This document shows, piece by piece, positions 3,791-64,000 of a DNA stretch of 64,000 bases. The stretch's first letter is position 1. The number at the start of each line of letters is the position of its first letter. The position numbers and the translations under genes are program-made. Below the pieces are notes generated by a model. The model was not told the DNA's origin and ran no database searches. It worked only from the letters and a program-made list of their open reading frames with translations. Origin of the DNA: a bacterium (GTDB lineage: Bacteria > SAR324 > NAC60-12); contig CBDBHR010000003.1 of assembly GCA_965205865.1 (NCBI GenBank), positions 32,001 to 96,000 of the forward strand, written 5' to 3'.

Positions 3791-3821
3791 TGATTAAAAA
3801 TCCCCAAGTCTCTCAAATCCA

Positions 3822-5105: not shown

Positions 5106-5190
5106 AGGGAACGTAATCAAAAATGTCAAGGTGCCTTGCAGGTAATAGGAATCCTAATTTGCTTTTCTTCATGAAAGAATACAGGCGAGA

Positions 5191-7575: not shown

Positions 7576-7614
7576 TCTGAAAAGAATGGAGAAAAACATC
7601 GTGGAGAAAAAGGA

Positions 7615-43451: not shown

Positions 43452-43557
43452 TCACTCAGAATGGCATTTACGCCAAACTGGTCAAGGGTCTGGAAGAAAC
43501 CACGGCAACCGAACCCACTCGGGCGCGAGTGCAAGTGCTTCGATGGCGTTTTCGGGA

Positions 43558-43899: not shown

Positions 43900-43970
43900 T
43901 GTTCTCCTTTCTTTGTACTGGTCGGAGGATCGAATTTCATTTAGGGAGAAGCCTGTGATTTCCCTGCTTT

Positions 43971-44546
43971 TCATGATCCCCACATCAGGAATGCAAAGGC
44001 AATATTCCCCAAATAAAGCAAAGCCAGAGTGGAAACGGCCATACGCCCTTTCATTGTCGGATAGCGCCACACCAGCAGGATGCTGCACACCACCACGAGC
44101 GCAATCTCGATGGGGAGAAAAATTGTACCAAAATGCTGAGGATCCCAATATGAAAATGGGCTTTTAAATCGCCAGTCGGACAAAGGGAACAAATGCCGGT
44201 GCGCATCGTCATGATGCAAAGGAAAATCCAGCATGACATGCAAGAGCATGCCCCCAAAAAATAATTGTAATCCTTTATATTTTTTAAAATGCGCCAACCC
44301 CAGTCCCAGCAGGATCAGTGGAAGAGAATTGAAGAAATCAATGATATTCTGCCACTTGGGATCATAGTAAGATACCGACCATATCAAATGTTCCTGAGTT
44401 TGACGGATCATTTTTTCCACGAAATAAAAATAGAACATGGGAAGATCCGGAATAAATGAGCCTGCCACGATGAGCCAAGAGTTTCGGGTGCTTGGATTGC
44501 GATCCAATACAATTAGATTAGCCACAATGTGAGCAGGAGTGTTCAT
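43971..44546 (-). CDS. Membrane-bound metal-dependent hydrolase-like protein
   Basis: MNTPAH, GSFIPDL, LLHVMLDFPLHHDDAHRH His motifs; several TM segments. Confidence 0.65.
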   Translation of the reverse strand: MNTPAHIVANLIVLDRNPSTRNSWLIVAGSFIPDLPMFYFYFVEKMIRQTQEHLIWSVSYYDPKWQNIIDFFNSLPLILLGLGLAHFKKYKGLQLFFGGMLLHVMLDFPLHHDDAHRHLFPLSDWRFKSPFSYWDPQHFGTIFLPIEIALVVVCSILLVWRYPTMKGRMAVSTLALLYLGNIAFAFLMWGS

Positions 44547-44641
44547 TTCGACGACCGGCGGTTCCGCATTGCTGCTTTGAAAGATTCAGGATACTTTTTC
44601 ATCGAACAGTGAGGGAAAGAACCAATGAATTGGTTAAAGTA

Positions 44642-44799
44642 ACCTGAGTTTAAGATAAGAATTTAATAAATTCAATATGTTATGGAATCTTCATGTCTTA
44701 GAGAAACCTTGATAGGGGTCAGGAAGGCCATTGCCTCCCTGACCCCTATCATATACACTAGGATACTCATATTATTGAAGATTTATGTCGAACTCAGGT
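44642..44799. mobile_element. MITE with IS982-like ends (copy 1)
   Basis: Ends ACCTGAGTT.../...GTCGAACTCAGGT; 7-bp target duplication TAAAGTA; body shared with 49423-49660 and 56294-56509. Confidence 0.85.
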
Positions 44800-44828
44800 T
44801 AAAGTAAGTTTTTCTCCGGGAACAAAAG

Positions 44829-45584
44829 CTATCTGAAGTATTCGGCTGCGTCCTGCGCCTCAAATCCCAGTATTTCTTTTGCGCGACTCATATCCCGGTA
44901 GCCCCATTTGTTTTTCGAAATCACGTAGAAAACGTCGTATTTGATGGTCTTTGGGGCAGTAATACATGCTTCAATCATCTCGACAATATCCCGGTGACTG
45001 CACCAGACTGAGAAACCTCGGGAATTCAAGGGCTTGTTCGCTGCATTGACCATCCCAATACGCAGACTGATGACGGATAAATCCCTCATATCGGCAAAAT
45101 GGCGACCCAGCGCTTCTCCCCAGATTTTGGTTGCGCCATAAACACCATTTGGTCTGGATGGTGTTTGGCGGTCGAATTGTGGCCAAATTTCCGGTGCTTT
45201 CTCGTATCGCCCTTCGACAATGGCTTTGAGGGGTTCATCTTTTTCCCACCCGGAAGTGGTGGCTCCACTGCTGGCAAAAATGACTCGCTGGACCCCGGCT
45301 TTAAGTGCTGCCAGAAAAACATTGTAGGTGCCGATGATGTTTGTCTCGAGATACTCTTGCCATATAAAATTATTTCCGGATTTAGCTGCAAGATGGACCA
45401 CAACGTCCTGCCCTTCAAAAGCCGGTCGTATTGCTTCCAAATCAAACAAATCGGCTTGAATACATTTTTCTCCCGGTACTGCACTTCGATTGAGACCGGT
45501 GAGTTCGTATTTACCTTGTAAATGTTGGCGGACCAGCCCCCCGATCAGACCACTCATTCCCGTGATCAAAACTTTTTTTATCAT
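44829..45584 (-). CDS. NAD-dependent epimerase/dehydratase (uronate dehydrogenase-like)
   Basis: KVLITGMSGLIG, VVHLAA, IFASS, YGATK. Start placed at MIKKV; the ORF extends to 45671. Confidence 0.85.
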   Translation of the reverse strand: MIKKVLITGMSGLIGGLVRQHLQGKYELTGLNRSAVPGEKCIQADLFDLEAIRPAFEGQDVVVHLAAKSGNNFIWQEYLETNIIGTYNVFLAALKAGVQRVIFASSGATTSGWEKDEPLKAIVEGRYEKAPEIWPQFDRQTPSRPNGVYGATKIWGEALGRHFADMRDLSVISLRIGMVNAANKPLNSRGFSVWCSHRDIVEMIEACITAPKTIKYDVFYVISKNKWGYRDMSRAKEILGFEAQDAAEYFR

Positions 45585-45705
45585 ATTGGACCTTCCATTG
45601 ATTTTTGTTGCGGATTTTGTTACGACGTTTCTCACCCCGATATTTGTCCCGATATACGTTTGGAATGTCAAGAGTCGCTCCAGCGAGGTTTTATCGATAT
45701 ACGAA

Positions 45706-46617
45706 TCAGTGGAACGCGCTCAACACTTTCTCGTCCAATTCTTTGTAGATTTCCGGTTTGTTGGGAATTGAATGTAACTTGAATTCGTCAACTCCGACTT
45801 CGATGAAGTCCTGTGCGCGATCAATCACGTACTGGGGAGGACCGATCATTTTCCAATCGTCACCACTGCGAAGTTCCGCGGCCTTCTGCTCGTCGTATTC
45901 GATTCGTATGGGTACGTGGACCGTTCTGCGAATCTCTCCCGGATCCCGGCCGACGGCTTTACAATGTCGTTCCAGGACGCCACTCAATCGAGTTACCTCT
46001 TGCGGCGCGCACATCACGTTCATGATATCGCCATACATGGCAAGCGTGCGCAGGGTGCGTTTCTCTCCCATACCGCCTACCATAATCGGCGGATTTGGTT
46101 GCTGTAAGCATTTAGGCTCAAAAGGCGCCTGATATAGCTTGTAGTATTTGCCTTCAAAGTCAACCAGGTCTTTTGCGGCAAAGAGAATCTTCATTAACTT
46201 GCAGGCCTCCTCGAGACGGTCACTACGTTCCTTGAGTGAGGGAAAATCCCAACCGTAAGCCTGGTGTTCACGCACGTTCCATGCCGCCCCGATACCAATC
46301 ACCAGGCGTCCGTTTGAGATGTGGTCGACGGTGGCAGCCATTTTAGCGGTGAGCGACGGGTTACGATAGGTGTTTCCTGCCACCAGCAAGCCCATACGCA
46401 AACGCTTGGTCACCGCAGCGGCGGCACAGAGCAACGACCATCCTTCGAAGGTCGGAATCCTATCATGTTCCATTACCTCGTCAGTTGGGCTTAGTGGTGG
46501 AATGAAGTGATCATAAAACCAAACACTGTGCCAACGCGTGACCTCCATAACCTCGAGAACGGCCTTGATGTCTCGCCAACTTGTTGCTTGGTTGTGTAAC
46601 TGGGCTCCAAATTTCAT
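45706..46617 (-). CDS. Luciferase-like monooxygenase (LLM), flavin/F420-dependent oxidoreductase
   Basis: VWFYDHF, GNTYRNPSLTAKMAATVDHISNGRL..GIGAAW, PPIMVGG.GEKRTL. Confidence 0.9.
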   Translation of the reverse strand: MKFGAQLHNQATSWRDIKAVLEVMEVTRWHSVWFYDHFIPPLSPTDEVMEHDRIPTFEGWSLLCAAAAVTKRLRMGLLVAGNTYRNPSLTAKMAATVDHISNGRLVIGIGAAWNVREHQAYGWDFPSLKERSDRLEEACKLMKILFAAKDLVDFEGKYYKLYQAPFEPKCLQQPNPPIMVGGMGEKRTLRTLAMYGDIMNVMCAPQEVTRLSGVLERHCKAVGRDPGEIRRTVHVPIRIEYDEQKAAELRSGDDWKMIGPPQYVIDRAQDFIEVGVDEFKLHSIPNKPEIYKELDEKVLSAFH

Positions 46618-47121
46618 ATATTCTCCATTCACTTCTTGTATTCGTTTACACTGCAACATTGCAGGTTGATTTCCACGAAAAAATTCGTGAAGACGACGCT
46701 TTTAAAACCTGTTTTAAAATACCGGAATGAGAGAAAAACGTTTTCTCTCCTTGGCAAAGAGGGGTTAAGGGAGGTCCAAATTGGTAAAAACCCCACCTGA
46801 CATCCTCTTAACAAGGGAAGGAATTGTATTTTTAAACAGGCTCTTGATTTACTGGACTTTGGACATTCGAGTAAATTTTCAGGAAGAAATTCAGACAATC
46901 ATTCTTTACGGTAGAGTTTCCAAAACAAGCATGCATACAGGAGTTGGCCATGGTTTTTCTTCCCAATGAATTTATAATCAATTTAGAGTCATTTAGACAG
47001 CTTTTTTTTCTAACAATGTTGAGATCGACGCTCTCGAATCGGCGAAGGCCGCCGGCTGCTCCACCGGGAGAACCCTGCTGCGCTATATTCTGCCCAATGT
47101 GACCGCCCCATCCTCTTACGC

Positions 47122-47244
47122 CGGGAAGACAAGTTCCCTCTCGACAAATTGGTGACCACACGCTACAAACTGGAGCGGGCTAACGACGCTTGTGACGAGT
47201 TGCAAACCGGTGAGATTCTTGGTCGCGCGATCATTGAGTTCTAA
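47122..47244 (+). pseudogene. C-terminal remnant of a Zn-dependent alcohol dehydrogenase
   Basis: REDKFPLDKLVTTRYKLERANDACDELQTGEILGRAIIEF*, with no upstream body. Confidence 0.65.
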
Positions 47245-47389
47245 CAGCATCGATTCTTTCGAGCTTGGCGAGGGCCTTCGTCTTCCGCTGACCTCAATGG
47301 AAGAAATACAATTGGAAAATTTCTTGACCGGTCACAAGACAATCAGGCAACTTCTCGTTTAAGACTGATTGAGAGAGGAGAGCTCCGTT

Positions 47390-48331
47390 TCAACTTTTTA
47401 ACTCACCCAATCCATACTGACCGCGAGCAACAAATTCGCCTTTGGGCGCATCAATGCTGCCATAGCCATACCAGGGTTTGAATCCAATCAAAGCCAACAG
47501 TTCTTCTGAGGCGTCTGTCAACACTTCAGGGGAGGTGCCCAGTAAAAAATTCTCCTGTTGCCGGAATTGCGGGGCGCAGAAATTGATCGTCAGACCGATG
47601 CGCGTTTGATTGCTATGATTGGCACCGGTCGAATGCCAGGTGCGCCCTTCAAAAATCACAACGGATCCGGCGGGAGCTACCGTCGGGATCCAATTAGCCT
47701 GCGCATCGAGTTCGGGGTCCGGTTGACGACCGTTCAGATGGCTGCCGGGAACGACAATGGTGGCTCCATTGTCTTCCCGAAAATCATCCAGAGTCCACAT
47801 CGAGTTGCAGACAAAAGCGGGAGCAAAGGCAGGCAAGTTCACGGTGGCCTCCCCCCCTACATGATGCCCCCGATGCCCCTCACGCGTTATGGAACCCGGC
47901 TTTATCAGCGTCTCTTTCCGGCTATTTGTCGGGGGTGGCATCCACCATTGATCCGTATGAAATATCTCCGTGCCCCCCGGGTGAGCAATATGACCCACAT
48001 AGGAACTGAGTAAATATACGGAACCCAGCACATGATTGATCATCTTTCTTACTTCGGGATGGAACAACAAGTCGCGAAACCCTTGCCCTTTGTTGATTAA
48101 AAAAAAGACGATTTGCTTCTTGTCCTGCCCCATCGTAGAGAATCCCTGCTGCGTTTCCGCTTCGACTTGTTCCAACAGTCGCGTACGCAATGCTGCGGCC
48201 TCCTCTGCGCTGATGGCATTGGCCAGGATGCAGTAGCCAAATTCGTCCATATGGGCTTTAGCAAATCTGAGATCTGTGGTGGGTCGAGGATAGTCTTGGT
48301 TTGTAGTTATCATGGAAGTCATTTTGTCCAT
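47390..48331 (-). CDS. Phytanoyl-CoA dioxygenase (PhyH) family protein
   Basis: FHTDQW (HxD), LDDFREDNGATIVVPGSH, GRTWHSTGAN...R. Confidence 0.88.
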   Translation of the reverse strand: MDKMTSMITTNQDYPRPTTDLRFAKAHMDEFGYCILANAISAEEAAALRTRLLEQVEAETQQGFSTMGQDKKQIVFFLINKGQGFRDLLFHPEVRKMINHVLGSVYLLSSYVGHIAHPGGTEIFHTDQWWMPPPTNSRKETLIKPGSITREGHRGHHVGGEATVNLPAFAPAFVCNSMWTLDDFREDNGATIVVPGSHLNGRQPDPELDAQANWIPTVAPAGSVVIFEGRTWHSTGANHSNQTRIGLTINFCAPQFRQQENFLLGTSPEVLTDASEELLALIGFKPWYGYGSIDAPKGEFVARGQYGLGELKS

Positions 48332-48552
48332 TTTTGTTTTAAAACATAATTGAAATGGTTCGATACCTTGTCACTCATTCAATAATGAGTCGTCCCGAGT
48401 ATATGCGATAAATCTTGTAAAATCAATCATTTCAATCACACAAGATTTCTCCTTCCGCTAAAAATGACAAAGGGAGGTGGCAATTGACATGAAATGGAAA
48501 AAGTCCACTTATTGCTCTGTTGGATTCAAGAAAAAACAACGCGGAAAGAAAA

Positions 48553-49232
48553 CCCCAAGGGGGTAAAACAATACAGAGCCTGGGGTCAGTGAGCTTGCGA
48601 GCACCACCCCAGGATAGAAAAAACACATTTCACGAACTCTGAAGGAGTTCCACAACTTCGTATTTGGCAATGCCTCAAGCGTTATCAAAGATCTATGTTC
48701 ATATTATTTTTTCAACTAAAGACCGCTTTGCGTTTTTAACAGAGATGGATATACGTCAGAAACTTTATGGTTATTTGACTGGAACGCTGAAACAAATGGG
48801 AAGTGACGTTTATATTGTTGGAGGAACCGCTGATCATACGCATATTCTTTGTACACTTCCCAAAAATGAGGCAGTACCAAAGTTCATTGGTGAAATGAAA
48901 CGTTCTTCCTCCAAATGGATCAAACCCAAAGGAGGAATATATACCAAGTTTGCCTGGCAAAGGGGCTATGGAGCCTTTTCAATCAGTCAGTCAGACCTAC
49001 AGCGTGTCTATGAATACATCCTCAATCAGGAAGAGCATCATCGTAAAATGAGCTTTCAAGAGGAGTTCAGGAAATTTTTGGAACGATACGAAGTGGAGTT
49101 TGATGAACGATATGTTTGGGACTGATTTTGTTGAACGTCTTCAGCGTTCTTATGGCTGGAGGAACCATATCCTGGGGTGGCGTGACTTTCAGCCACTGAC
49201 CCCAGGCTGGGTATTGTTAATCCCCTTTGGGG
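48553..49232. mobile_element. Y1 transposase gene flanked by about 100-bp imperfect inverted repeats (REPtron/IS200-like unit)
   Basis: 48553-48655 (CCCCAAGGGGG..AACAATAC..AGCCTGGGGTCAGTG..CCACCCCAGGATA..CTGAAG..GTTC.ACAA) is mirrored at 49128-49232. Confidence 0.7.
48664..49125 (+). CDS. tnpA: IS200/IS605-family (Y1, HUH) transposase
   Basis: YVHIIFSTK, DHTHIL (HUH), FAWQRGYGAFS, YILNQEEHH. Confidence 0.9.
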   Translation: MAMPQALSKIYVHIIFSTKDRFAFLTEMDIRQKLYGYLTGTLKQMGSDVYIVGGTADHTHILCTLPKNEAVPKFIGEMKRSSSKWIKPKGGIYTKFAWQRGYGAFSISQSDLQRVYEYILNQEEHHRKMSFQEEFRKFLERYEVEFDERYVWD

Positions 49233-49270
49233 AAAAGCAAACAGAGAAATACGAAATTCACCAAAATCCA

Positions 49271-50090
49271 ATCGGGATAGGAAGGGGTTTTTCTCCCCTC
49301 CCTCCCACCACCCCGCATACGGGTCCGTACGGGGCGATTCCCAAAGAGTGTCGGGCCGTAGCCGGACCAGATTCGCAACTACAAACCTGTACGTTTATTC
49401 GTCCCACAACGCACCTATTTTAACCTGAGTTCGAGATAAGAATTTAATAAATTCAATATGTTATGGAATCTTCATATCTTAGAGAAACCTTGTCATTCCT
49501 GCAAAGCTTGTCCCTGCGAAAGCAGGGAGCAGGAATCCAGAGATATGTAGTCAGACTGAAATCCGGATCCCCGCTCCCCGCTTTTGCGAGGACAAGTTTC
49601 GCGAGGATGACATATAAACCAGGATACTCATATTATTGAAGATTTATGTCGAACTCAGGTTATTTTAATCATCTCCACCGGTCGGCTTCATCGATGTACA
49701 GAGCTTATGGGATAGAGCGTTCTCTTGGGTTCGGGCCTTCACTCTCAAGGAGCTACTATGCCCTCGGCTGAATTCTGACCGCCCTTCGTTGCCGATTACT
49801 CGACACCGCGCTACCTGAGACAAACGAGAAGAAGGAGAGTGATGCGCAAGAGAGGAATAAACCGACCGCATCACGATCAGATCTCCCCGGCTAAGAGCAT
49901 GAACTTTCCTTACGCAATCGCGGCATTTACCATCCTCCTTAATCCGAGTGGACATCGCGATGTTGCGCATGCTCGCCCCGAAGTTCAGCCTTATATGCTG
50001 TTTCTGTCCGTCGACTCGTAGGTTTGCGCTCAGGCTTCCTCCGCACGGCTCGTCACCTCCCCGCACTTGCCCTCGGCCAGTACTTTTTTT
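49271..50090 (-). ncRNA. Group II intron ribozyme, class IIC-like, ORF-less and 5'-truncated
   Basis: Minus strand: DV GAATCGCCCCGTACGGACCCGTATGCGGGGTGGTG (CGC triad), DVI ending CCTATCCCGAT. DI-DIII motifs GAGGAAGCC...GCAAACC, CTTAGCCGGGGAGATCT, TCAGCCGAGGGCATAGTA, GAAGGCCCGAAC. Confidence 0.8.
49423..49660. mobile_element. MITE with IS982-like ends (copy 2), inside intron domain IV
   Basis: Same ends as copy 1; 7-bp target duplication TATTTTA; central GTCATTCCTGC...GGATGAC REP-like hairpin. Confidence 0.85.
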
Positions 50091-52551: not shown

Positions 52552-53250
52552 GTGATGTCTAAAAGAGGAACAAAACATAAGAAGGATTCGCAAAAACGAA
52601 AAGTAAATAAAAAAAAGCTGCTCTCTCCACATTCTTTTAGTCCATTACCAAACGAATTGTTCCTGTCAAAATATGAGATTACAGATGAACCCCTGGAAAA
52701 TAAATTTCCTCCGGAAATCAAAGATCAAGCAGAAACTCTTTATGAGCAGGCTCATTCATCTCCTGAGGAGGCCTTGCTCCAATTAGAAGAACTGATCGAA
52801 AATTATCCACAAATTCCTCAACTTCACAATTACCTGACGCTTGCATACTCCAGACTTGGAAAATGGGAAGAAGTTGATGAAATTATCATCAAAAATTATG
52901 AGAGACATCCTGCGTATTTATTTGCTAAATCCAATTATGCGAGACTCTGTCTACGTGATGGAAATGTAGGACAAATTCCAACAATTTTTAATCATCAATT
53001 TGATCTGAAATTATTATACCCAATACGAACAACGTTTCATGTTTCGGAAGTAATAGTTTTTTTCGGAGTAATGGGAGAATACTTTTTGAAAATAGGACAA
53101 AGATCTGCTGCTGAATTATGCTATCAGGCGCTTCACCAAATTGATTCACGTCATGAACAAACCAGAGTTTTTAAGAAAAAAATTTATCCCTCGATATTTT
53201 CAAAGTTATTACACAAATTACCAGGGAGTTCATATGAACGAATTTATTGA
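52552..53250 (+). CDS. TPR-like helical repeat protein
   Basis: LEELIENYPQIPQLHNYLTLAYSRLG...HPAYLFAKSNYA TPR-like pattern. Confidence 0.6.
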   Translation: MMSKRGTKHKKDSQKRKVNKKKLLSPHSFSPLPNELFLSKYEITDEPLENKFPPEIKDQAETLYEQAHSSPEEALLQLEELIENYPQIPQLHNYLTLAYSRLGKWEEVDEIIIKNYERHPAYLFAKSNYARLCLRDGNVGQIPTIFNHQFDLKLLYPIRTTFHVSEVIVFFGVMGEYFLKIGQRSAAELCYQALHQIDSRHEQTRVFKKKIYPSIFSKLLHKLPGSSYERIY

Positions 53251-55517
53251 TTTAATGGAAAAAGTCGAAAATCCAGGAACATTTTCCGTAAGTGGAAAGT
53301 TGACTTCTATCCCTCCCGGGCTCAAAGTCAAAGGTTTGGGAATTGTTTCTCTACCCCTTCTTGCGCATCAAGCAAAAGCACTGATTAAGATTAGTGAGCA
53401 AGCTCCTTATGGACGTGGAGAAGACACGATTGTAGATACAAATGTTCGAAATGTTTGGCAAATCTCTCCTGAAAATTTTGAGCTGATCAATCCCCAATGG
53501 GAGGAGGCTCTACAAAAATCCATCAATCAGATAGGAAAGCAATTGGGTTTGCACGGATGCGAAATTGCTTTTGAACAGTACAAGCTTTTAATCTATGAGA
53601 AAGGATCATTTTTTAAATTACACCGTGATACCGAAAAAATACCTAATATGTTTGCGACTTTGGTGATTAACTTACCTTCTGAGCATGAAGGAGGCGAATT
53701 GATTGTAAGTCATGGTAGTCAAAGTCATCGTTATTCATTTGCTGATAATGATAGCTTCCATCTTGGATTTTTTAGCCTTTTATGCTGACTGTTATCATGA
53801 AGTCAAGCCATTAACTTCCGGCTATCGAATATGTTTGATTTACAACCTCGCTATTGCGAATAGACAGGTACAACCTCTATTATCTCAACAATTAAAAATT
53901 GTTGAGGATGTTAGTAATGCCATACAAAAATGGACACAGGAAAATAAGGAAAACCCCATTTTAACCTATTTGCTGGAGCATGATTATTCAGAGGAAAACC
54001 TTTGTCTCTCTAATCTTAAAAACGGAGATTTTGCAAAAGCCTCTGCTCTATTAAACGCAGCGGAAAAAAATGGCTGCCAAGCATTTTTATGTTTAGTGAC
54101 CTATTATCGGACAAGTTATGGAGAAACAGTCTATTATGACCGGTATTCTCATAAAGATGATTTGGATGAAGATGATTTTGAAGAATATGATGTTGATGGC
54201 GAAGAAGTTTATGCGCATTATTTTATGACCTCTAAGGGGGTAAAAATAAATATAGAAAAATTACATTTAGAAGAAGATGAGCTACTCGCAAAAATTCCTT
54301 TACTTGATGGGCCTGGACGAGATTTCTCTATCTCGGAAGCAAGTGGTAATGAGGGAGCAACCAAGGAACTCTGGTATCACCGAGGTGCTGTGATCATTTG
54401 GCCAAAGGATCGAGATTTGGACATGATCACAAAAATGGATATCAATTATGGGATACATTATTTAAAAAACCTTCTTAAAGAACAGGATTTATGGGAAGAG
54501 GATCATCGTCAAAAAATAATTCGATTGGCAGAATATATTATCGAAGATCAGCCTCGCTATAGTAAGGAAGATATTTCACAAGAGTTAATTGCAATTGGAG
54601 ATGTTGAGCTGCTCCAAAAGTTTATTCATAGGCAGATGAGTTATCACGATCTAAGTCTCGTCGATGTTCAAACATTTATACAGATTCTAGAGCGTTTTGG
54701 TTGGCAATACTTTGAAGAAGATATTTGCACTAGTTTGACCTCTGAACAGGACCTTTATCAATGGAATGTCGACAAACGGGACGTTATTCCATGGATGAAC
54801 TCCCTACTACTCGTAAAAAAATCTCTTTCCAGTGAAGGTCAATCTGTCATGAAAAAATGGGTTCATGCATTTTGGAAATCGTCATTGGAGTATCGCCTGA
54901 CCAAAGGGAAAATTGCAAATATGTTACAAATTGTTTCTTTGCTTAAAATTCATGCGTTAACAGATGAGGTCATTGAGTTTTTATCTTTCCAAAAGCAGCC
55001 TTCTTTTCTTACCGCTACTTATGGCCCGGCTTTAGTGAGTGCCCACAAGAAGCTTAAAGGGTATGACTATGATCGGGTGATCATGAAAAAATTTGTTGCG
55101 AATGTACTCCAACGGATTCAAATAGATTTTCCATCTCCTCCAAATCAACCAAAAGATTGGTTTCGTGAGGGAAATTTGAAATGTAATTGTCAATTCTGCA
55201 CTCGCGTTAATCAATTTTTACCTGATCCTGCGCAAAGTGAAATCAGTTTTTACAAAACATTAAAACGAAATATGACCCATATTGAATCTGAGATTGAAAA
55301 GAGCAAAGTTGACCTGGATATTGAAATTATTCGATCCCCTCCTAAGTTTCAAGGAACCTGCAGGAAGAATCAAAATAGATACGAAAATAAACGTCAATTA
55401 TTTGATAGTGCTCAAAAAATTGTGAAAGAATTACAGCTTGATAATAATTCTATCGAAACCTGGATCTTGAAGGATTCATCGAAAATTAGGTGTCTTGGTC
55501 AAACAGTTTCAAAATGA
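53234..55517 (+). pseudogene. 2OG-Fe(II) oxygenase-domain protein, frameshifted at T6 run 53768-53773
   Basis: YKLLIYEKGSFFKLHRDTEK...HEGGEL in one frame, AFYADCYHEVKPLTSGYR in the next; removing one T joins them. Confidence 0.82.
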
Positions 55518-55809
55518 GAAAAATAGGTCTGAAAAATGCAGAAAAATGATTTTCAGAATGCAGAAAAAAAACTTCTGAGCGGATACAATTCCAACAAATT
55601 GATTGACAGGGCTGTGAGACCCAGCAGGTTTTTCAAAGATTCTGCAAAATTTGGATTTATTCTTGTTTCCAACCATAGTCAGAGAGGTCTCACACCTGTC
55701 TTCATATGCGTTGTGCGACCTGCAAAGGCGCACATTGGGATAAGAATGACTGTTTCCCTCCCACCCGCTGGGCCGGAGGGAGGAACAGGAGCGGGTTTCG
55801 AAGGATTGC

Positions 55810-56204
55810 CTAGAAGCCCATTTCTTTCTTCAGCTCCTGGTCAATCCGGAGGCGGGAGAAGATGACCATACGATTCATACTTCCCAGCTGGACTTCACCG
55901 TTGTAGCCTATGACCCACGGATGGATCGCGTTGAACTTGGCAGGGTGAGGCCCCCAGACATACCCCTGCTGCTCGATCAGGACCATATCTGCCTGCCTGG
56001 CGTGCTTCATCTGCTCCTCGATGGTGGTCGCCGCTTCGACCGCTTCTATGATGGCGTCCAACTCAGAGTCCTTGATTCCGGAGAGGCTTCACATGGAGCT
56101 CGAGTGACCCCGCATGCGTATTAGAAAAGTCGCATCCCTATTCCAGCCAGCCACCGTACCTTGCATACCTTCCCAAGTCCGTTCGGTTATCAGAGTCATC
56201 ATAG
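55810..56204 (-). pseudogene. C-terminal remnant of a family-5 ABC substrate-binding protein
   Basis: DSELDAIIEAVEAATTIEEQMK...HPWVIGYNGE...FSRLRIDQELKKEMGF*; internal TGA at 56089-56091. Confidence 0.6.
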
Positions 56205-56290
56205 TAGGAAAATCATGGGCAAGCATGCTCCACTGATAACCCGTTTTCAGGACATACAAAATCGCATTGACGATGCTATGTTTGCTATGA
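56205..56290 (-). pseudogene. IS5-family (IS427/IS1031-type) transposase fragment
   Basis: HSKHSIVNAILYVLKTGYQWSMLAHDFP matches the conserved N-terminal motif. Confidence 0.7.
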
Positions 56291-56293
56291 ATA

Positions 56294-56509
56294 ACCTGAG
56301 TTCGAGATAAATCTTCAATAATATGAGTATCCTAGTGTATATGTCATCTTCGCGAAACTTGTCCCCGCGAAAGCGGGGAACGGGGATCCGGATTTCAGTC
56401 TGGCTGCATACCTCCGGATTGCCGCTTTCGCAGGAATGACAAGGTTTCTCTAAGATATGAAGATTCCATAACATATTGAATTTATTAAATTCTTATCTCG
56501 AACTCAGGT
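56294..56509. mobile_element. MITE with IS982-like ends (copy 3, inverted)
   Basis: ACCTGAGTTCGAGATAA...TTATCTCGAACTCAGGT; reverse complement of the copy 2 body; no target duplication left. Confidence 0.85.
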
Positions 56510-56513
56510 TAGT

Positions 56514-58191
56514 TAGTGCCTGACAGAAAAATACAATTTTACTAATAAGAGGTGTAGAATCCGCGAGAACATCTGTTTTTGAACAAGCCATATTTTAGAG
56601 AATTGAAGCTATTTTTCTTTGGGATCCCTAATTTTTTGTTACCCCCCTATTTTTGGACACTCACCCCCCCCTCCCGGCCTCCCCTCTTGTTTCAGAATGG
56701 GGAGTCACTCTTGGGTTCAGGCCGCTTTTTTGTAGGGTCCTCGTTTACGACGCTGCCGTTCTTTTTGTTGTTCACGCAGGACGGTGCCGAAACGGTGGAT
56801 GTTTTTTGCCAGCACAGCCAGAGCGACATAGCGTTCGAACCATGGTTTCGTTGAAGCGCACACTGCGGATGATTTGGCTCATGAGTTTTTCTGCGGAGCC
56901 CATGTACCCCCGCAAGCGTAGCAGTTTCAAAGAGGAGCGCACCCGTTTTTCCAAAAGTTCCAGGCTTGTCCGGACCCGCAGTTGATACCCCTTGGCCATG
57001 AGGACGTATTTGAGATATTCCTTGCGCCTCTTTTCTTCACGGGCACGCTTTATTTGCTCAACTTTCGAAGTGGAGGGCCTGAGCTTTTGGATGAGACGAT
57101 ACTGCTTTTTGAACTGCCTGAGGTTGAACCGATATTGTCGCTAGCTCTCCAACTGGCAACTCCGTGAAAGCCTGGCGCATTCTTCAAGCGTCTTGCGTAC
57201 GGCGTCGAAGAGCAGGTTGACGTCGGTCGGATAATGTACATTGGTTTCAACCACAAAGGAGTCGCAGCGTGCACGTAGCGCCTTGCTTGAATCATGAAGT
57301 TCAATCTTCTTCTCCGTGCGAGTTCGGGTTGGCCCATCTTTTGGGGCGTTTTTTTTTTACCAGCCCATGTCCGGCTTTGACAACCAACTGATTGATCTCA
57401 TCGAGAATCTCAGGTGTGAAAAGACGCAGGTTATCCTTGATCGTCTGCCGGTTGTACGTCGTTTTGTCCTCCCACCCACCATGTCCGAGCATCTGCCGGA
57501 TGGTGTCGTGATGGTTAGCCAACTCATGGATGCGGTCGTAATAGGTGTTGAGACCCAGGCGCAGTACGCCAAGCACCAGAATCTTCCACTGCTCCATCCC
57601 AGGACGCCCAAGACGGGGGTCCGCTTTGCGATGCCTGTCTTCTTTGCTCAGGCCCGGACCGCTTCGCGAGGGGATAACTCGTTCCGGAACCTTGAATACC
57701 GATGCGCGTAATGCTGGCGTGGCGTATATGTATTGCAAACCGCGAAGGATAGGGGGGATGTCATCACGGGATTTTAGATCCAACTCGATGGCGGCAACGT
57801 CGACTTCGCCGAACTTCATCTGGGGGTCACGTATGGTGCGCATAATATTTCAAATCTTGAAGATTTACGGAAAAACGAAAGAAACCAGTCCGAAAATACT
57901 GTAACTGCAACGATTGACCCTTCATGCGAGCTGGCGCAAACTCGGGTTTTCTCAAATCTTCGCGTCACAAATATCAGTTTATCATCTTGATATAATTAAT
58001 GAAAGACTTTACATGATATTTAATGGTATTCACTTATTTTTAAGAAACGAAGATTTTGGAGAAACTCATAAAAATCCCATTTTTTGCTGATTTTGGCCAT
58101 CTGAACACTGCATCAAACCAATCTTCATCCTATGAAATTGAAGAATTATCATTTAATATCAGCAATTTGAGTATTTTTCGGCCAAGCACTA
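56514..58191 (-). mobile_element. ISNCY/IS5-like element with inactivated transposase
   Basis: IRs TAGTGCCTGACAGAAAAATAC / GTATTTTTCGGCCAAGCACTA. ORF 57843-57301 (SRDDIP, GRPGMEQWKILVLG) shifts at an A10 run to RCDSFVVETNVHYPTD, then a stop and an internal deletion before FERYVALAVLAKNIHRFG. Confidence 0.82.
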
Positions 58192-58456
58192 ATTAGTAAC
58201 TGTCCCCAGATTTTAGGAATCAACGCTCTTTAATATCTTCCTTGCATTTAATCAGAATCTTTGATATGATTCGCATTAAATCAGTTGAATTTGGCATGTA
58301 TTCGATTTTGCGTTAACTAAGTATTGATTTGTCGCTGTCGCGACAATGCTATCAGTGTTCAGCAACTGCGGCCCGCGTGGGGTTTTCAGTAATAAAAAAG
58401 ATCTAAAATACCAATAACTGACAGCTAAAAGCTCCTTCTATCTCAAAGGATTCCCC

Positions 58457-61400
58457 ATGAAAATAACGTTCACTCAGCAGATGTCATTGGATCAGCATAG
58501 GAACCGGTTTTTGACCGATGATCGCTGTCACCAGCATTTTTTCGCAGTTCGCTGGCCCCAGGGGTTTGTCTGTCCCTCCTGTGGCCATCGTGAGTATTAT
58601 GAGGTGTCGCTGCGCAAACTGTTTCAATGCAAACAATGTCATTCCCAAACCTCAGCTACAGCAGGTACGATCATGCACCGGACTCGGACTCCACTGCGTT
58701 ACTGGTTTTGGGGGATTTATTATGTGGCCGCATGCAATGGGGAGATAACGGCTCAACAATTATCAGAAAAAATCGGATTGAATTACCATGCCGCCCGGAG
58801 AATGCTGGGAAAAATCCACGAAATCGAAAAGAACCAGGGTTTCCTGGGGGATCTGTTGAAAAGCTTCAAAATTCCTGAAGGGTCAAAGGAAGAAGTCTGC
58901 ACCGGACCGGGAATGGAAACGCCACCCGGGCCAATAAAAGGGCCTTATCCACTAATAGAGCAGACGATTCCAGACAGAAAAAAACCGGATATACCGGGTT
59001 ATTCGCTGGAGGAGGTTATTTTTGAAAGCGGACGGACCCGGCTCTGGCGGGGCAGGCGGAATAGCAACGGGCTTTTGGTTTTGATCAAGGGAGCGGCTTC
59101 CTCTGAGCAGAGCGCGCAGGAACAGGCGGAAATACGGCACGAGCATGAGATCACCCAGGCTCTCAAGATCGATGGGGTCCTCCGGTCAGAGGAACTGGTG
59201 GCGTGTGAGAACGGATCGGCTTTGATCCTGGAAAACACCGAAGGCCTTCCTTTAAGAAAGCTGATGGATGCCACCCGGCTCGACCTGCCGGACTCGCTTA
59301 AGGTAGCGGTTTCACTGACCAGCACCCTGGAAGAAGTGCACCGGCAGGGCATCCTGCATAAAATGATCAACCCGTTGAATATTTTTGTTGATCCGGCATC
59401 AAGAACAGTCAAATTGACCGGCTTCGGCCTGGCCACCCGGCTTCCCCGGGAAAATTTGACTACGTTGAGTCCCCAGCTTAGCGGGGAAACCCTGCCCTAT
59501 ATCTCCCCCGAGCAGACCGGCCGGATGAACCGGGTGCTCGATTATCGCAGTGATTTTTATTCCCTGGGCGCCACCCTTTACGAACTTTTCAGCGGGAGAG
59601 TGCCTTTCCAATCCCGGGAGGCCATGGAAATCATCCACGCCCACATTGCCCGGCAGCCCGTACCCCTGGACCAGATGGCGCCGCAGGTGCCCAAAACTCT
59701 TTTCCGCCTGGTGATGAAACTGATGGCCAAGCGTGCCGAGGCGCGCTACCAGAGTCACTCGGGCCTGGCAGCCGATCTCCTGGCATGTCTGGATCAGCTC
59801 GAAAATCAGGGGAGCCTGTCCGATTTTCCCCTGGGCCGCTATGACATTCCCAGTGAACTGCAGATCGCCCCGGGGCTTTACGGCCGGGAAGATGAAATCG
59901 CCACCCTGGAGGCCGCCCTGGAGCGAGTCAGTCAGGGAGCAACCGAGATGGTGCTGGTCTCGGGATCCGCCGGTGTCGGCAAAACTGCCCTGGCTGCTGA
60001 AATTCACAGGTCCGTTGCCCAAAAAAATGGCTTCTTCATCTCCGGCAAGTTTGACCAGCTCCGGCACAATATTCCCTACAGCGCCCTGATCCAGGCGCTA
60101 CGGGGACTCATCCGGGAGGTATCGGCCGAAGGCAAGTTCGGAATGGAGCGTTGGAAAAGCAGGATACGGGCTGCCCTGGGACCCAGCGGACAGCTCCTGA
60201 CCCGGGTGATCCCGGAACTGGAACAGATGATCGGCCCGCAACCCCCGCTGCCGGAAATGGGAGCGCTGGAGACCCGCAACCGCTTCACTGCCGTTTTACT
60301 GGAGTTCATCTTCGTTTTCTGTGAAAAAACCCATCCGCTGGTTATTTTTCTGGACGACTTGCAGTGGGTGGACGCCGATACCCTCAAGCTGGTTGAACGG
60401 ATCGCTCAGGATTCGGAGAGGAAACCTCTGCTTTTCCTGGGAGCCTATCGCGACAACGAGGTGGATACCGGCCACCGGCTGATGATCAGTAGTGAAGTGA
60501 TCAAAAAAACAGGCCAGCTGCTGCAAACGATCCCCTTAAAGCCCCTGAACCGAGAACACATCTCACGACTGCTCGTCCATACTTGCCACTGCCGTCCTGA
60601 GGATGCAAACCCGCTGGCCGAGCTCCTGCTGCGCAAAACCGGCGGCAATCCCTTCTTTGTGAGCCAGTTTTTGACCCTACTTTCCGAGAAGAACCTGATC
60701 CGGTATCAGCCTGAGGAAAAACGATGGACCTGGGAGCTGGCCGCCATCGATTTCCTGGCGGTGACAGATAATGTAGTTGAGTTGCTGATTGACCGGCTCC
60801 AGGGTTTTTCCTCTGAAACCAAGCGACTCTTGAGCCTGGCGGCCTGCATCGGCAATACCTTTGACCTCGAATCCTTGGGACTGATCAGCGGAGAAGGAAG
60901 CGGGGAGATCGATGAGAACCTGTTGCCGGCCCTGGAAACCGGGTTGATCCTCGGTTTTTCCCAGGCCCCGCAGCTGGATAATCCGACCGCCGGAGCGAGT
61001 GCGGAAGATGGCAGCTACAAGTTCCTGCATGACCGGGTGCAGCAGGCTGCCTATGCCCTCATTGCGCAAAAGGAGAAACCGGCGGTCCATCTTCAAATCG
61101 GTCAGACCCTGCTCAAGCAATACGCACCGGAGAAAGGTGAAGATCTGCTTTTTGACATCGTCCATCATTTCAACCTGGCCCGGAGGGTGAAGGATAAATG
61201 GAAAGAACGATCGAAGCTAGCGGAACTCAACCTGAAAGCCGGTCGTCAGGCCAGAGCGGCTTCGGCTTTTGAACAGGCCCTGGAATACTTTACCATCGGC
61301 CTGGAGCTTTCAGGAGCCACCGCTTGGAAACGGCAATACCCCCTGGCCTTATCCCTGCATGAGGAAGCTACGGAGATGTCATGGCTCTGCGGCCGCTTCG

Positions 61401-64000
61401 AGTTGATGGAGAAGCTGGCGGGTGCCGTAAAAGACAACGCCCGAGAGGACCTGGACCTGGCCAATGTTTATCAATGCCTGATCAAGGCGTACACGACCCA
61501 GGGTGAATTAAAGAAGGCACTGAAAACGGGTGAGGAAATTCTGGAGAAATTTGGGTGTAAACTGAGCCGTCTGTCTCCCGACCAGTGGCAGCAGACCCTC
61601 GTTCAAATCAAACCCAGCCTGGCCGGTAAAAGCGCTGAAGAAGTGATGCGCTTTGAGCCGCTCACCCAACCGCTTTCCAAGGTCCTTGTCCATATTCTAT
61701 ATGAGCTCCATTTGCCATATAGCGAGGCTGGGGTTACTTTGGATGACGGTCTTTGGCAGCCCATCGCTTCAAAACGCATCTCTTTGCTGCTGAATCATTT
61801 TCATCCGAAACAATCACCCGAATCCTATGCTCTCCTTGGAATGATATATTGCGTGTATATGCAGGATTTTGAATTTGGTTATGGACTCAATCGTCTGGGC
61901 ATACAGCTCATGGAAGCGCTTGATCTGAAGGAAATAAACTGTAGAGTTTCCGGGGGATTCAATGGTGGGACCCGGTCCTACCGGGAGCCGCTATCGGCGA
62001 CATTGGAGCCCTTGCTTGAAGCTCATAAGATGGGAATCGAAACGGGAGATTTCTTCTATGCCGGTCGTAGCGCCGTCGTAAGATGTCAGATTGCGTTTAT
62101 GTGCGGGAAAGAGCTGAATTGGCTGAAAGGGGAATTGTCGACGTTGAAGCTTGCTCTCAAGAAGATCGATTATATTATCGGGTCTCCCCAGGTGGAAATG
62201 CTTATGAAGGCGGTCATGATTCTGATGGAGGAGCCTTCGAGCCTGTCGAGCGGGATCATGGATCAATACCATAGGGTGACGGGTGCAGGGTACGTCTATC
62301 GTGAACAGAGCTGTTTTAATTACCAAAAGCTGGTGCTGCAATACCTGTTCGAAGAATACGAAGCAGCGCGGGAGACGGTTTTTGAAATGATCAACTTGAT
62401 GAAAACCTACAAGGATGCCCTTACCGATCCCCTGGCCAACTGCTACCTGTCCCTCGCTCTCCTCGCGCTTTGCGACCAGGGGCCTGAGGGGGAAAAGGAG
62501 GAGATCCTCACCCAGGTTAACGACAATCAGGCTTTATTGGAGAAACTGGCGCGCAGTGCCCCGCCCAATTACCGACACAAGCATCACCTGGTGGAAGCCG
62601 AACGGTTGCGAGTTTTGGATGGTGAAAGTGATGCGATCCTGTCCCACTATGACCAGGCCATCGCTTTGGCCAGAGAGAGCGAATTTATCCACGAGGAAGC
62701 CCTGGCCAATGAACTGGCAGCCAGGTACTTGCTCAACCAAGGGCAAATCGACGCCGCCAGGTCTTACCTGCGCTCTGCAATGGAGAAATACGAAGCCTGG
62801 GGGGCAAAACGGAAGGTCGTGCACCTGAAGCATCGATATCCCGGGTTGATTGCCGATGATCACACTGAAGCAGCGGCGTCTCCTTGGGCCAACCTGGATC
62901 TGGGGACGATGCTCAAAGCCTCGGAGGCCATCTCCAGTACCATCGAGCTGGAACCGCTGCTGGAGATCTTGCTCCGTATTCTAATGGAAAATGCCGGGGC
63001 CCAGACAGCAGCCCTGCTTCTGGAAACCGAAGGTCAGTCTCTCATTGCTGCCCGCGGGAGCGCCGAGCAGGTCGAATGTTTTCTACCGTTTTCCCTGCCT
63101 GTGGAAAAGGCTTTCTCCCTCTCCCTCTCGGTCATCTCCTGGGTGAAACAAACCCGGGAACACCTGGTTTTGGACAACGCCTCCCACGAGGAACGGTTTG
63201 TCGGGGATGACTATATTAAAAGGGAACGTCCTAAATCGATCCTGTGTGCGCCGATACATCATAAGTCCGCCTTGAGCGGAATCATTTACCTGGAAAATAA
63301 CCTGGTCGAGGGGGCCTTCACCTCCCGGCGACTCGAGGTTATCAAACACCTTAGCTCCCAGATCGCCATTTCCCTGGAAAATGCCAGGCTCTACGACAAC
63401 ATGAAGCGAGCGGAAGCCGAATACCGGGGAATTTTTGAAAACTCCATGGAAGGCATCTACCGGACGAGCCTAGATGGCCGCTTTCTGAACGCCAATCCAG
63501 CGATGGCCCGGTTATTCGGATACTCCTCCCCGAAAGAGCTGATGGAATCCATCACCGACGCCGGGCACCAGCTTTATGTGAATCCGGAACAACGCAACCA
63601 GTTCCTGGATCTCATGCGGCAACGACGTCCCGTTTCGGATTTTGAGGTGGAATTTTTCCGTAAAGACCGCAGCACCTTTTGGGCATCCCTGCACGCCCGC
63701 CCCGTCTATGACTTGAAAAACCACCAGTTGCTGTTCATTGAAGGGTTGGTAGCGGATATTACCCACCAGAAAAAGGCGCTGGACGAACTGAAAGCGAGCG
63801 AAACCTCCCTGCGTCAGGAAAATATCCTCCTGCGAGCCCGCATCAAAGATCGCTTTCGGTTTGGTGACATTATCGGAAAAAGCGAACCCATGCAGCAGGT
63901 ATACGAGTTGATTTTAAAAGCGGCGGCCACCGATGTGAACGTGATCCTCTACGGCGAATCGGGAACCGGAAAAGAACTGGTCTCCAAGGCCATTCATGAG
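58457..64000 (+). CDS. Giant multidomain regulator: IS1595-like Zn-ribbon/HTH, Ser/Thr kinase-like, AAA ATPase, helical repeats, GAF, PAS, sigma54 activator (3' end beyond the window)
   Basis: AAAGGA RBS, then ATG 58457. RWPQGFVCPSC, FQCKQC, ILHKMINP, YISPEQTGRMNR, SGSAGVGKT, LDDLQWVD, KTGGNPFF, KFLHDRVQQAAY, IIYLENNL, YRGIFENSMEGIY and GESGTGKELV all lie in one frame, and the ORF track lists no stop-terminated ORF in that frame. Confidence 0.9.
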   Translation, partial: MKITFTQQMSLDQHRNRFLTDDRCHQHFFAVRWPQGFVCPSCGHREYYEVSLRKLFQCKQCHSQTSATAGTIMHRTRTPLRYWFWGIYYVAACNGEITAQQLSEKIGLNYHAARRMLGKIHEIEKNQGFLGDLLKSFKIPEGSKEEVCTGPGMETPPGPIKGPYPLIEQTIPDRKKPDIPGYSLEEVIFESGRTRLWRGRRNSNGLLVLIKGAASSEQSAQEQAEIRHEHEITQALKIDGVLRSEELVACENGSALILENTEGLPLRKLMDATRLDLPDSLKVAVSLTSTLEEVHRQGILHKMINPLNIFVDPASRTVKLTGFGLATRLPRENLTTLSPQLSGETLPYISPEQTGRMNRVLDYRSDFYSLGATLYELFSGRVPFQSREAMEIIHAHIARQPVPLDQMAPQVPKTLFRLVMKLMAKRAEARYQSHSGLAADLLACLDQLENQGSLSDFPLGRYDIPSELQIAPGLYGREDEIATLEAALERVSQGATEMVLVSGSAGVGKTALAAEIHRSVAQKNGFFISGKFDQLRHNIPYSALIQALRGLIREVSAEGKFGMERWKSRIRAALGPSGQLLTRVIPELEQMIGPQPPLPEMGALETRNRFTAVLLEFIFVFCEKTHPLVIFLDDLQWVDADTLKLVERIAQDSERKPLLFLGAYRDNEVDTGHRLMISSEVIKKTGQLLQTIPLKPLNREHISRLLVHTCHCRPEDANPLAELLLRKTGGNPFFVSQFLTLLSEKNLIRYQPEEKRWTWELAAIDFLAVTDNVVELLIDRLQGFSSETKRLLSLAACIGNTFDLESLGLISGEGSGEIDENLLPALETGLILGFSQAPQLDNPTAGASAEDGSYKFLHDRVQQAAYALIAQKEKPAVHLQIGQTLLKQYAPEKGEDLLFDIVHHFNLARRVKDKWKERSKLAELNLKAGRQARAASAFEQALEYFTIGLELSGATAWKRQYPLALSLHEEATEMSWLCGRFELMEKLAGAVKDNAREDLDLANVYQCLIKAYTTQGELKKALKTGEEILEKFGCKLSRLSPDQWQQTLVQIKPSLAGKSAEEVMRFEPLTQPLSKVLVHILYELHLPYSEAGVTLDDGLWQPIASKRISLLLNHFHPKQSPESYALLGMIYCVYMQDFEFGYGLNRLGIQLMEALDLKEINCRVSGGFNGGTRSYREPLSATLEPLLEAHKMGIETGDFFYAGRSAVVRCQIAFMCGKELNWLKGELSTLKLALKKIDYIIGSPQVEMLMKAVMILMEEPSSLSSGIMDQYHRVTGAGYVYREQSCFNYQKLVLQYLFEEYEAARETVFEMINLMKTYKDALTDPLANCYLSLALLALCDQGPEGEKEEILTQVNDNQALLEKLARSAPPNYRHKHHLVEAERLRVLDGESDAILSHYDQAIALARESEFIHEEALANELAARYLLNQGQIDAARSYLRSAMEKYEAWGAKRKVVHLKHRYPGLIADDHTEAAASPWANLDLGTMLKASEAISSTIELEPLLEILLRILMENAGAQTAALLLETEGQSLIAARGSAEQVECFLPFSLPVEKAFSLSLSVISWVKQTREHLVLDNASHEERFVGDDYIKRERPKSILCAPIHHKSALSGIIYLENNLVEGAFTSRRLEVIKHLSSQIAISLENARLYDNMKRAEAEYRGIFENSMEGIYRTSLDGRFLNANPAMARLFGYSSPKELMESITDAGHQLYVNPEQRNQFLDLMRQRRPVSDFEVEFFRKDRSTFWASLHARPVYDLKNHQLLFIEGLVADITHQKKALDELKASETSLRQENILLRARIKDRFRFGDIIGKSEPMQQVYELILKAAATDVNVILYGESGTGKELVSKAIHE

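Follow-up and report, generated by a model that had tools for sequence, protein, structure and literature searches.

A putative DNA-binding head from an IS1595-family transposase on a giant sigma54 activator of a SAR324 bacterium, one of three interchangeable cassettes

The window analysed here, 64,000 nt of the genome of a SAR324 bacterium (genome G000, contig C3, G000:C3:32001-96000), ends within a gene for a giant sigma54 activator that starts at position 58457 of the window. Judged from its sequence, the first part of this gene, 58457-59000, appears to be the exapted DNA-binding head of an IS1595-family transposase from which the catalytic DDE domain is gone. This zinc ribbon-helix-turn-helix (Zn-HTH) head is one of three interchangeable recombinase-derived cassettes that have been shuffled among paralogues on a chassis that is 84-91% identical. 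We put at about 55% the probability that the head is an exapted cassette giving the activator a second, swappable DNA-targeting contact that aims the paralogues. An earlier note on this DNA, made from the letters alone, had described the head and its fusion to the activator; the wider picture, a chassis present in many copies on which the Zn-HTH alternates with two other cassettes derived from recombinases, escaped it.

Results

A transposase head at the start of a giant activator gene

The gene runs 2807 nt past the window to a stop at G000:C3:96807 (whole gene, G000:C3:90457-96807). In the encoded protein of 2116 aa the Zn-HTH head is followed by a Pro-rich linker, a putative pseudokinase, an AAA_16 nucleoside triphosphatase (NTPase) of the STAND class, a probable helical arm, GAF and PAS domains, a sigma54-interaction AAA+ domain and a Fis-type HTH (Table 1). 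The in-frame fusion of the head to kinase-like, AAA_16, GAF, PAS and sigma54 domains had been proposed in the earlier note, and every one of these domains was matched in a Pfam profile search. The linker is crossed without stop or frameshift, as the note had it, the open reading frame (ORF) being open throughout.

The zinc ribbon was matched by PF12760 (Zn_ribbon_IS1595) at residues 20-64 with 58.8 bits against a cut-off of 25.4 (E 5e-16). Its Cys ligands C39, C42, C58 and C61, all four of which the note had said were kept, are present together with a further Cys, C24. In a 73-row alignment that includes transposase relatives, each of these five Cys is either invariant or conserved in at least 90% of the rows. 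For the HTH region behind the ribbon, residues 76-123 align to positions 2-50 of the 215-position NCBIfam model transpos_IS1595, at 24.5 bits and thus below the 75-bit cut-off. A tblastn search with residues 1-181 matched the resident IS1595 transposase of G000 collinearly over residues 16-122, at 31.8% identity in seven places; an eighth copy of that transposase, cut by a contig end, matched residues 45-122 at 34.6%. The IS1595 zinc ribbon at the start of the ORF, as first proposed, is thus borne out, and the HTH behind it is supported by the collinearity in tblastn and in the 73-row alignment, the NCBIfam match being below its cut-off. The resident element itself is intact, 1.13 kb long, encodes a 300-aa transposase and has 23-nt imperfect inverted ends (e.g., G000:C3:18685-19820); with seven near-identical full copies and one at a contig edge in G000, it is apparently active.

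No match to DDE_Tnp_IS1595 was found anywhere in the giant protein (Pfam, E <= 0.01), and the residues after 130 are linker and kinase fold. Scans with IS-end motifs found no terminal inverted repeats around the giant gene. Both results agree with the note, in which neither a DDE domain nor insertion sequence (IS) ends had been evident. Residues 1-130 carry a net charge of +8.

An AlphaFold model of the head computed from the 73-row alignment (mean pLDDT 86.6) contains two N-terminal helices, a three-stranded ribbon at residues 47-66 and HTH helices at 80-92, 99-106 and 110-126. A Foldseek search against the PDB returned no whole-domain match for the head and none at E <= 0.001; the partial matches, all at E > 0.1, were to ribosomal and TFIIB/TFS-type zinc ribbons and to HTH domains. 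With VIA-align, the best rows for residues 74-128 were MarR, homeodomain, Lrp-type and winged-HTH/HTH DNA-binding folds at Z 4.2-5.4. Since such Z values can come from common helical arrangements, the fold evidence for the HTH is supportive but weak; the weak structural matches do not make the fold of the head new.

The ribosome-binding site that the note had placed before the zinc ribbon is found as AGGA 6 nt in front of the ATG at 58457. The three nearest copies (subtype A, see below) in G019, the complete 4.26-Mb genome of a sister species, have retained this GAGGA/AGGA-to-ATG layout.

The fusion is shared, under selection and apparently of one origin

Relatives of residues 1-181 were sought among database proteins of 1163-3703 aa, and 38 of the 45 long relatives of the head carry PF12760 together with Pkinase and AAA_16. 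Zn-head copies number three in G000 (on contigs C3, C23 and C24) and 10 in G019; those on C23 and C24 are intact and about 85% identical to the window gene in the body and 68-70% in the head. Of 45 genomes scanned in the family, only those of the genus to which the window belongs, from two species, have the fusion. A scan of 88 genomes of the class added one long fusion, in another family (G075), as a complete 1097-aa ORF with Zn ribbon, Pkinase and AAA_16 and without the sigma54 part. An exhaustive protein search that covered 1.84 billion representatives yielded P0059 (2155 aa), in which the whole architecture is present and collinear at 38% identity over about 2160 columns. Two other proteins, P0042 and P0058, combine this head (52-57% identical) with another body, of TPR-GAF-sigma54 type. 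P0009-like proteins, 1460-1620 aa long, have the head but no sigma54 module.

The ratio of nonsynonymous to synonymous substitution rates (dN/dS), calculated by the Nei-Gojobori method for 13 copies from G000 and G019, is 0.12-0.135 for the HTH, 0.21-0.24 for the Zn ribbon, 0.30 for the kinase fold and 0.55 for the linker, the value for the ribbon resting on unsaturated pairs, as dS is saturated in 41 of the 78 pairs. The head is under purifying selection.

In quick trees, 20 fused heads formed one group against 39 heads of DDE-bearing transposases with an SH-aLRT support of 97, and of 99 when the rows were trimmed to the homologous 119-135 residues. This grouping indicates that the fused Zn-HTH heads have a single origin. 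The closest true transposases found (P0062-P0064 and one in G055) are 45-47% identical to the head over about 115 residues.

The many homologues and the purifying selection lend support to the view, put forward in the earlier note, of a domesticated transposase DNA-binding region in a signal-integrating sigma54 activator. The note had also allowed for a chance remnant whose fusion no homologue shares. Because the fusion is shared, is under purifying selection, points to one origin and is preceded by a conserved start, this is not what we find.

In a separate observation, protein P0071 (689 aa) of the representative library has three or four tandem Zn_ribbon_IS1595 domains and no other Pfam family.

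Three heads are exchanged on one chassis

The chassis, taken as residues 182-1000, gave 7999 matches at E <= 1e-30, of which the best 120 were screened for head type from precomputed Pfam assignments. Many of those at 84-91% identity are devoid of PF12760 and carry one of two other heads instead: PF13356 (Arm-DNA-bind_3), the arm-site binding domain of integrases, or a MerR HTH with or without Resolvase, as in IS607-type serine recombinases. Both alternative heads were confirmed by hmmscan on translated G019 loci. In PHROGs, the MerR-resolvase head falls into a "transposase" family (E 8e-44) and the Arm head goes weakly with integrases. A set of 122 chassis proteins comprises 44 with the Arm head, 39 with the Zn head, 4 with the MerR head and 35 that start within the head, linker or kinase; given these start positions, we regard the 35 as truncated gene calls and not as a fourth head type. 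The database names of the chassis proteins are generic ("sigma 54-interacting transcriptional regulator", "AAA family ATPase").

In G019, 29 chassis matches correspond to 28 loci. Nearly the full length is present at 24 of them, and at 21 the frame stays open for 1889 aa or more; the 21 open frames, of about 6 kb each, occupy about 3% of the genome. The heads at these loci are 14 Arm, 10 Zn (3 of them in broken genes) and 2 MerR. Heads of all three types join the chassis at a KP[DE]IPGY motif, at about 58980-59000 in the window, and the contigs of all four public runs aligned to the window (4/4) diverge upstream of 58980, with an Arm/MerR-type linker as the loose end.

The distribution of heads was followed on a chassis tree of 79 rows, from which the 35 short-start rows and 8 rows without a match to the junction pattern were left out. 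Head type needs 25 changes on this tree, where 2 would be the fewest possible; shuffled head types gave a mean of 28.8, close to the number observed. If only branches with good support are counted, 13 changes or more are still required. The protein that starts in the window has an Arm-type protein as its sister. Within the Zn type, the ribbon falls into four subtypes (A to D) at 40-50% identity with saturated dS, while dS of the HTH, linker and body is about 0.23-0.35. From this divergence of ribbon versus body we conclude that the family is a mosaic homogenised by recombination, with old and diverse 5' cassettes.

The C24 copy of G000 (locus L005) and locus L021 of G019 are 94% identical over the 500 bp downstream of the gene and agree in their C-terminal HTH type; the Zn head is of subtype B in the former and of subtype A in the latter. 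This would be a head replaced at one chromosomal locus since the species split, or else a 3' conversion tract. The C-terminal HTH_8 itself occurs in three main types, which account for 45, 11 and 9 of 70 full-length proteins.

Several individual loci deserve description in their own right. At C23b (L006:1939-2718 / 2583-8405; G000:C23 ~42939-49405), the chassis ORF begins within the end of an IS607-like MerR-resolvase ORF, the two being offset by a -1 frame. They switch at a seven-A run (L006:2541-2547), where a -1 slip would give the linker seen in in-frame homologues; the overlap could reflect a frameshift mutation, a homopolymer assembly error or programmed slippage. C3b (L007:2499-5865; G000:C3 ~111498-114864) is wrecked: its subtype-B zinc ribbon is cut after the second CxxC, and there follow an IS200-like Y1 transposase fragment on the opposite strand, an IS607-like MerR-resolvase gene and a 449-aa chassis fragment. 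Stretches of 65-190 nt that contain the start codon are tandemly duplicated in the 5' leaders of subtype-B and subtype-D copies (e.g., L004:2100-2640; 450 nt upstream of L029). As a result, the gene is preceded by short ORFs in which its first codons recur. An upstream block of about 120 nt is strongly conserved among seven subtype-B copies.

Kinase, STAND, sensor and sigma54 parts

The kinase-like domain of the earlier note holds as a fold. Alignment to PknB revealed that HRD has become HKM, the catalytic-loop K has become N and DFG has become GFG, so that the catalytic Asp of HRD and the Asp of DFG are both missing, and the same catalytic residues are lost in the kinase fold of P0059. The kinase is predicted to be catalytically dead, and the domain is best read as a pseudokinase scaffold. 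The AAA_16 domain retains a Walker A motif (GSAGVGKT at 503) and a Walker B motif (FLDDL at 631). In the stretch of about 830 residues that follows, the only family match is a weak one to TPR_14 at 1420-1446, below the cut-off; the stretch probably serves the STAND module as its sensor arm, of helical or TPR-like build. The PAS domain occurs in some paralogues only: it is found in 23 of 70 full-length proteins and is missing from C23a and several G019 copies.

The sigma54 AAA+ domain has its Walker A motif (GESGTGKE at 1833) inside the window; GAFTGA at 1880 and Walker B (FLDEL at 1902) lie beyond it. GAFTGA is the motif of the loop that contacts sigma54. Further beyond the window come an AAA lid and an HTH_8 at residues 2068-2108 (Pfam, 36.2 bits). 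G000 contains one rpoN gene (Sigma54_DBD, 197.8 bits). Apart from the giant family, the sigma54 system of G000 looks small. With its Walker A and B motifs, GAFTGA loop and HTH_8, and with rpoN in the same genome, the activator part has the look of a functional one. The note had set the N-terminal HTH of this protein against the C-terminal position that is normal for bacterial enhancer-binding proteins. The usual C-terminal HTH is there as well, and the N-terminal module is therefore an additional DNA-binding candidate and not a replacement.

Table 1. Features of the giant activator gene and of the region in front of it, in window coordinates
Feature	Positions	Strand	Residues	Basis
Giant sigma54 activator gene	58457..64000	+	codons 1-1848 of 2116	ORF scan, open to window end
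12-nt direct repeats (58244-58255 and 58273-58284) in an upstream block of about 100 nt; possible promoter or operator	58244..58284	+		block conserved with L022
Ribosome-binding site AGGA (58447-58450), 6-nt spacer, ATG (58457-58459)	58447..58459	+		sequence inspection
IS1595-type zinc ribbon	58514..58648	+	20-64	Pfam PF12760 (Zn_ribbon_IS1595)
Three-helix HTH region	58673..58846	+	73-130	NCBIfam alignment, AlphaFold helices, dN/dS
Pro-rich linker	58847..58999	+	131-181	19.6% Pro; dN/dS 0.55
Hanks-type kinase fold	59048..59767	+	198-437	Pkinase, 87.6 bits
AAA_16 (STAND-class) NTPase	59876..60436	+	474-660	Pfam, 147-152 bits
About 830 residues without confident family	60437..62944	+	661-1496	collinear with P0059
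GAF domain	62945..63376	+	1497-1640	Pfam
PAS domain	63419..63766	+	1655-1770	Pfam
Sigma54-interaction AAA+ (Sigma54_activat), start	63869..64000	+	1805-1971 in full	PF00158, 224.9 bits

Surroundings of the gene and sigma54-type sites

The upstream block with the direct repeats (Table 1) is common to the window and one truncated G019 copy (L022), and is not present in the other subtype-A copies, L020 and L021; the repeats are a possible promoter or operator. The upstream blocks of the paralogues are subtype-specific. A scan of 57000-59200 for sigma70 promoters and terminators gave fewer matches than in shuffles. Farther upstream, at 52552-57843, lie four ORFs, of 232, 601 and 109 aa on the + strand and of 180 aa on the - strand, for which no Pfam family was found at E <= 0.001. 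Downstream of the giant gene, at G000:C3:96869-98767, there are a DUF3368 (PIN-like) gene on the opposite strand and a gene for a 460-aa IS4-type DDE transposase; no operon partner of the activator is evident there.

In two metatranscriptome libraries, which may contain DNA, contigs of relatives, mostly less than 90% identical, span 58657-59400 only. No contig from either library covers 58200-58445, and the libraries speak neither way on the expression of the giant gene.

Some single strict matches to the sigma54 (-24/-12) consensus can be listed here. One in G000 lies 108 nt before a PII-like gene at C30:153618. In G019, two of nine strict matches are within about 1.5 kb of a paralogue, which is anecdotal only. 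Downstream of a Zn-type paralogue of G019 (L028:1-3001) there is a 345-aa ORF of no assigned family, followed by a strict sigma54-type match about 316 nt before a putative solute-binding-protein gene.

Discussion

What the head may do

We propose that the STAND, GAF and PAS parts would sense signals and gate assembly of the sigma54 AAA+ ring, and that the C-terminal HTH_8 would bind enhancer sites as in ordinary activators. The N-terminal cassette would then touch DNA at a second specific sequence and in this way tether or aim the individual paralogue, and exchange of the cassette would re-aim an otherwise constant signalling machine. A role of the head as DNA-binding effector is favoured because all three alternative heads are DNA-binding domains, and because the head is the sole DNA-binding candidate in the G075 protein and in the 1460-1620-aa forms that have no sigma54 part. 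Other STAND regulators carry N-terminal DNA-binding effector domains, an arrangement like that of the G075 type. We infer from this that the head may bind DNA at specific targets and thereby affect activation.

A number of results weigh against such a targeting role. The structural matches of the head, by Foldseek and VIA-align, are weak. The putative recognition helix (third helix, residues 109-120) does not vary among the four Zn subtypes, and P0042 and P0059 have almost the same sequence there. The subtypes may therefore all have one target, contrary to what re-aiming predicts. Head type is not associated with the C-terminal HTH type or with the presence of PAS among the 70 full-length proteins, which could equally mean neutral shuffling. 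No sigma54-type promoters were found within 6 kb of five G000 loci, and genome-wide there are only six strict sigma54 matches in G000 and nine in G019, few for so many activators. Upstream regions of three subtypes have only one 9-mer in common, which occurs 27 times in the genome and is not enriched. Recognition of IS-end-derived sites, which the note had thought possible, found no support: every match to the 13-nt core of the resident IS1595 ends belongs to an IS copy (16/16), with no solo site in G000, and a degenerate end motif of closer IS1595 relatives (L033, L035) occurs once in the genome versus four times in a reversed-genome control. In addition, three of the 10 Zn copies in G019 are broken genes, six database proteins begin inside the head and one is frameshifted, and the metatranscriptomes hold only contigs of relatives, possibly DNA-derived.

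Alternative explanations

The heads might serve mobile-element surveillance, a reading that we consider rather unlikely. They would bait element ends or attachment sites or compete with cognate recombinases, the STAND module would then trigger a sigma54 response, and the family would be an NLR-like sensor array and not a set of ordinary promoter-specific activators. A sensor role would suit the recombinase origin of all three cassette types, the STAND-class core, the shuffling of cassettes, the richness of G000 in IS elements and the small number of sigma54 promoters for so many activators, as well as the extreme expansion to 28 loci in G019 and the split of the Zn ribbon into four subtypes while the rest of the gene was homogenised. 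Yet no resident element carries a close relative of any head, the resident IS1595 transposase being 31.8% identical; the Arm head matches only chassis loci in G019 (15/15) and nothing in G000, in G000 the MerR-resolvase head is confined to two chassis loci, and there are no solo IS ends. PADLOC returned only partial single-domain matches (RtcR/PspF-type AAA+-HTH; kinase domains of PD-T4-6, mad6 and PglW), and no defence-type effector gene lies beside the loci examined. A fully fledged NLR-like surveillance array with sigma54-driven output, its repertoire kept diverse by exchange among about 20-28 paralogues per genome, seems to us slightly more doubtful still. Similarly improbable is a role of the head other than DNA binding, be it autoinhibition or oligomerisation via the pseudokinase or STAND parts, or contact with RNA polymerase or RNA as in many zinc ribbons. 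Purifying selection shows that there is a function, not which one; the best partial Foldseek matches of the ribbon are ribosomal and TFIIB/TFS-type zinc ribbons, and the protein already has a conventional DNA-binding HTH_8. On the other hand, the DNA-binding region of the transposase has been retained entire and collinear, ribbon as well as HTH with the basic third helix, and the alternative cassettes are DNA-binding domains too, which is hard to square with a shared protein partner.

That the heads are translated but largely neutral passengers, by-products of repeated element insertions at a recombination-prone 5' end that were spread by gene conversion, we regard as quite unlikely. The 5' ends are indeed unstable: the start codon is tandemly duplicated in some copies, IS200-like and IS607-like genes interrupt C3b, and truncation or a frameshift has damaged the head of several copies. 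Head type, too, follows neither the chassis tree nor the C-terminal type. Neutral passengers would nevertheless not be expected to show a dN/dS of 0.12-0.24, below that of the kinase domain (0.30), nor invariant Cys ligands, and the fusion is kept at 38% overall identity and in another family of the class; the trees, moreover, point to a single origin of the heads and not to repeated captures. The giant genes could in principle be selfish mobile units that spread via the recombinase-derived head, which would explain their copy number. The MerR type does keep a full resolvase domain (the PHROG match cited above), and some copies share 270-290 bp downstream of the stop. The Zn and Arm types, however, are without a catalytic domain, no terminal repeats bound the genes, and the 94% identical downstream flank of C24 and L021 is what orthologous chromosomal loci would have. 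Because most flanks are unique, we hold selfish spread to be very improbable. Least credible, to the point of being nearly dismissed, is a chance in-frame remnant of an old IS insertion with translation from a downstream start. An in-frame ATG does exist at 58913 and some database gene calls begin inside the head, but the start at 58457 is conserved with its ribosome-binding site and ATG, and purifying selection acts on the head, which is intact in 38 of the 45 long relatives and in distant homologues.

Comparison with known systems

The preferred reading, an exapted head that provides a second DNA contact, can be set beside several known systems. IS1595-family (ISXO2-like) transposases share with the giant protein the collinear N-terminal region of about 120 residues, the PF12760 ribbon followed by the three-helix HTH. 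They differ in having DDE_Tnp_IS1595 and terminal inverted repeats, whereas the giant protein has neither and a regulator of 2000 aa follows its head; in the trees the fused heads stand apart from those of the transposases as a separate clade. Enhancer-binding proteins of the NifA/NorR/FhlA type resemble the C-terminal third, with GAF-PAS-Sigma54_activat-AAA_lid-HTH_8 and GAFTGA, and rpoN is present in the genome. Unlike them, the giant protein adds about 1500 N-terminal residues with the recombinase head, pseudokinase, STAND NTPase and a probable long helical arm.

Mycobacterial PknK is built as kinase-AAA_16-TPR, and MalT/LAL-type STAND regulators couple ligand sensing to oligomerisation and a DNA-binding effector. 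The Hanks-type kinase fold, the AAA_16 NTPase and the putative helical arm are common to PknK and the giant protein. In the latter, by contrast, the kinase is without catalytic residues, a transposase head and a Fis-type HTH are the DNA-binding candidates, and the output is through sigma54. In SARP/AfsR-type STAND regulators, an N-terminal DNA-binding effector is followed by the NTPase and a repeat sensor. This order is shared, and it is the only one present in the G075-type and 1460-1620-aa forms; the DNA-binding domain here is of another fold and origin (transposase Zn-HTH, integrase Arm or MerR-HTH) and is exchangeable.

Eukaryotic transcription factors such as those of the WRKY-GCM1 (PMC1702500), BED and THAP types use transposase-derived DNA-binding domains, and such reuse is well known in eukaryotes. 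The giant protein follows this principle, by which a transposase that has lost its catalytic part lends its DNA-binding domain to a regulator. The giant protein differs from the eukaryotic cases in being bacterial, in drawing on the IS1595 family and in occurring alongside two further recombinase-derived heads with ongoing exchange. A full-text literature search over article text only gave, in the titles and abstract openings of what it returned, no account of this fusion or of a three-head exchange.

Significance

The family provides a clear bacterial case of transposase-domain domestication, with purifying selection, an apparent single origin and conservation down to 38% identity. What is unusual is that a single signalling chassis alternates between three DNA-binding heads, all taken from recombinases and unrelated to one another. 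If surveillance were the true role, it would represent a new kind of link between STAND sensor and transcription, an innate surveillance built from the invaders' own parts. The giant family makes up most of the sigma54 activators of G000 (four of its seven strong Sigma54_activat matches), and it amounts to a natural experiment on the rewiring of enhancer-binding-protein targeting and a source of compact putative DNA-binding modules. It should thus be of interest for the study of enhancer-binding proteins, of STAND signalling and of the domestication of mobile elements.

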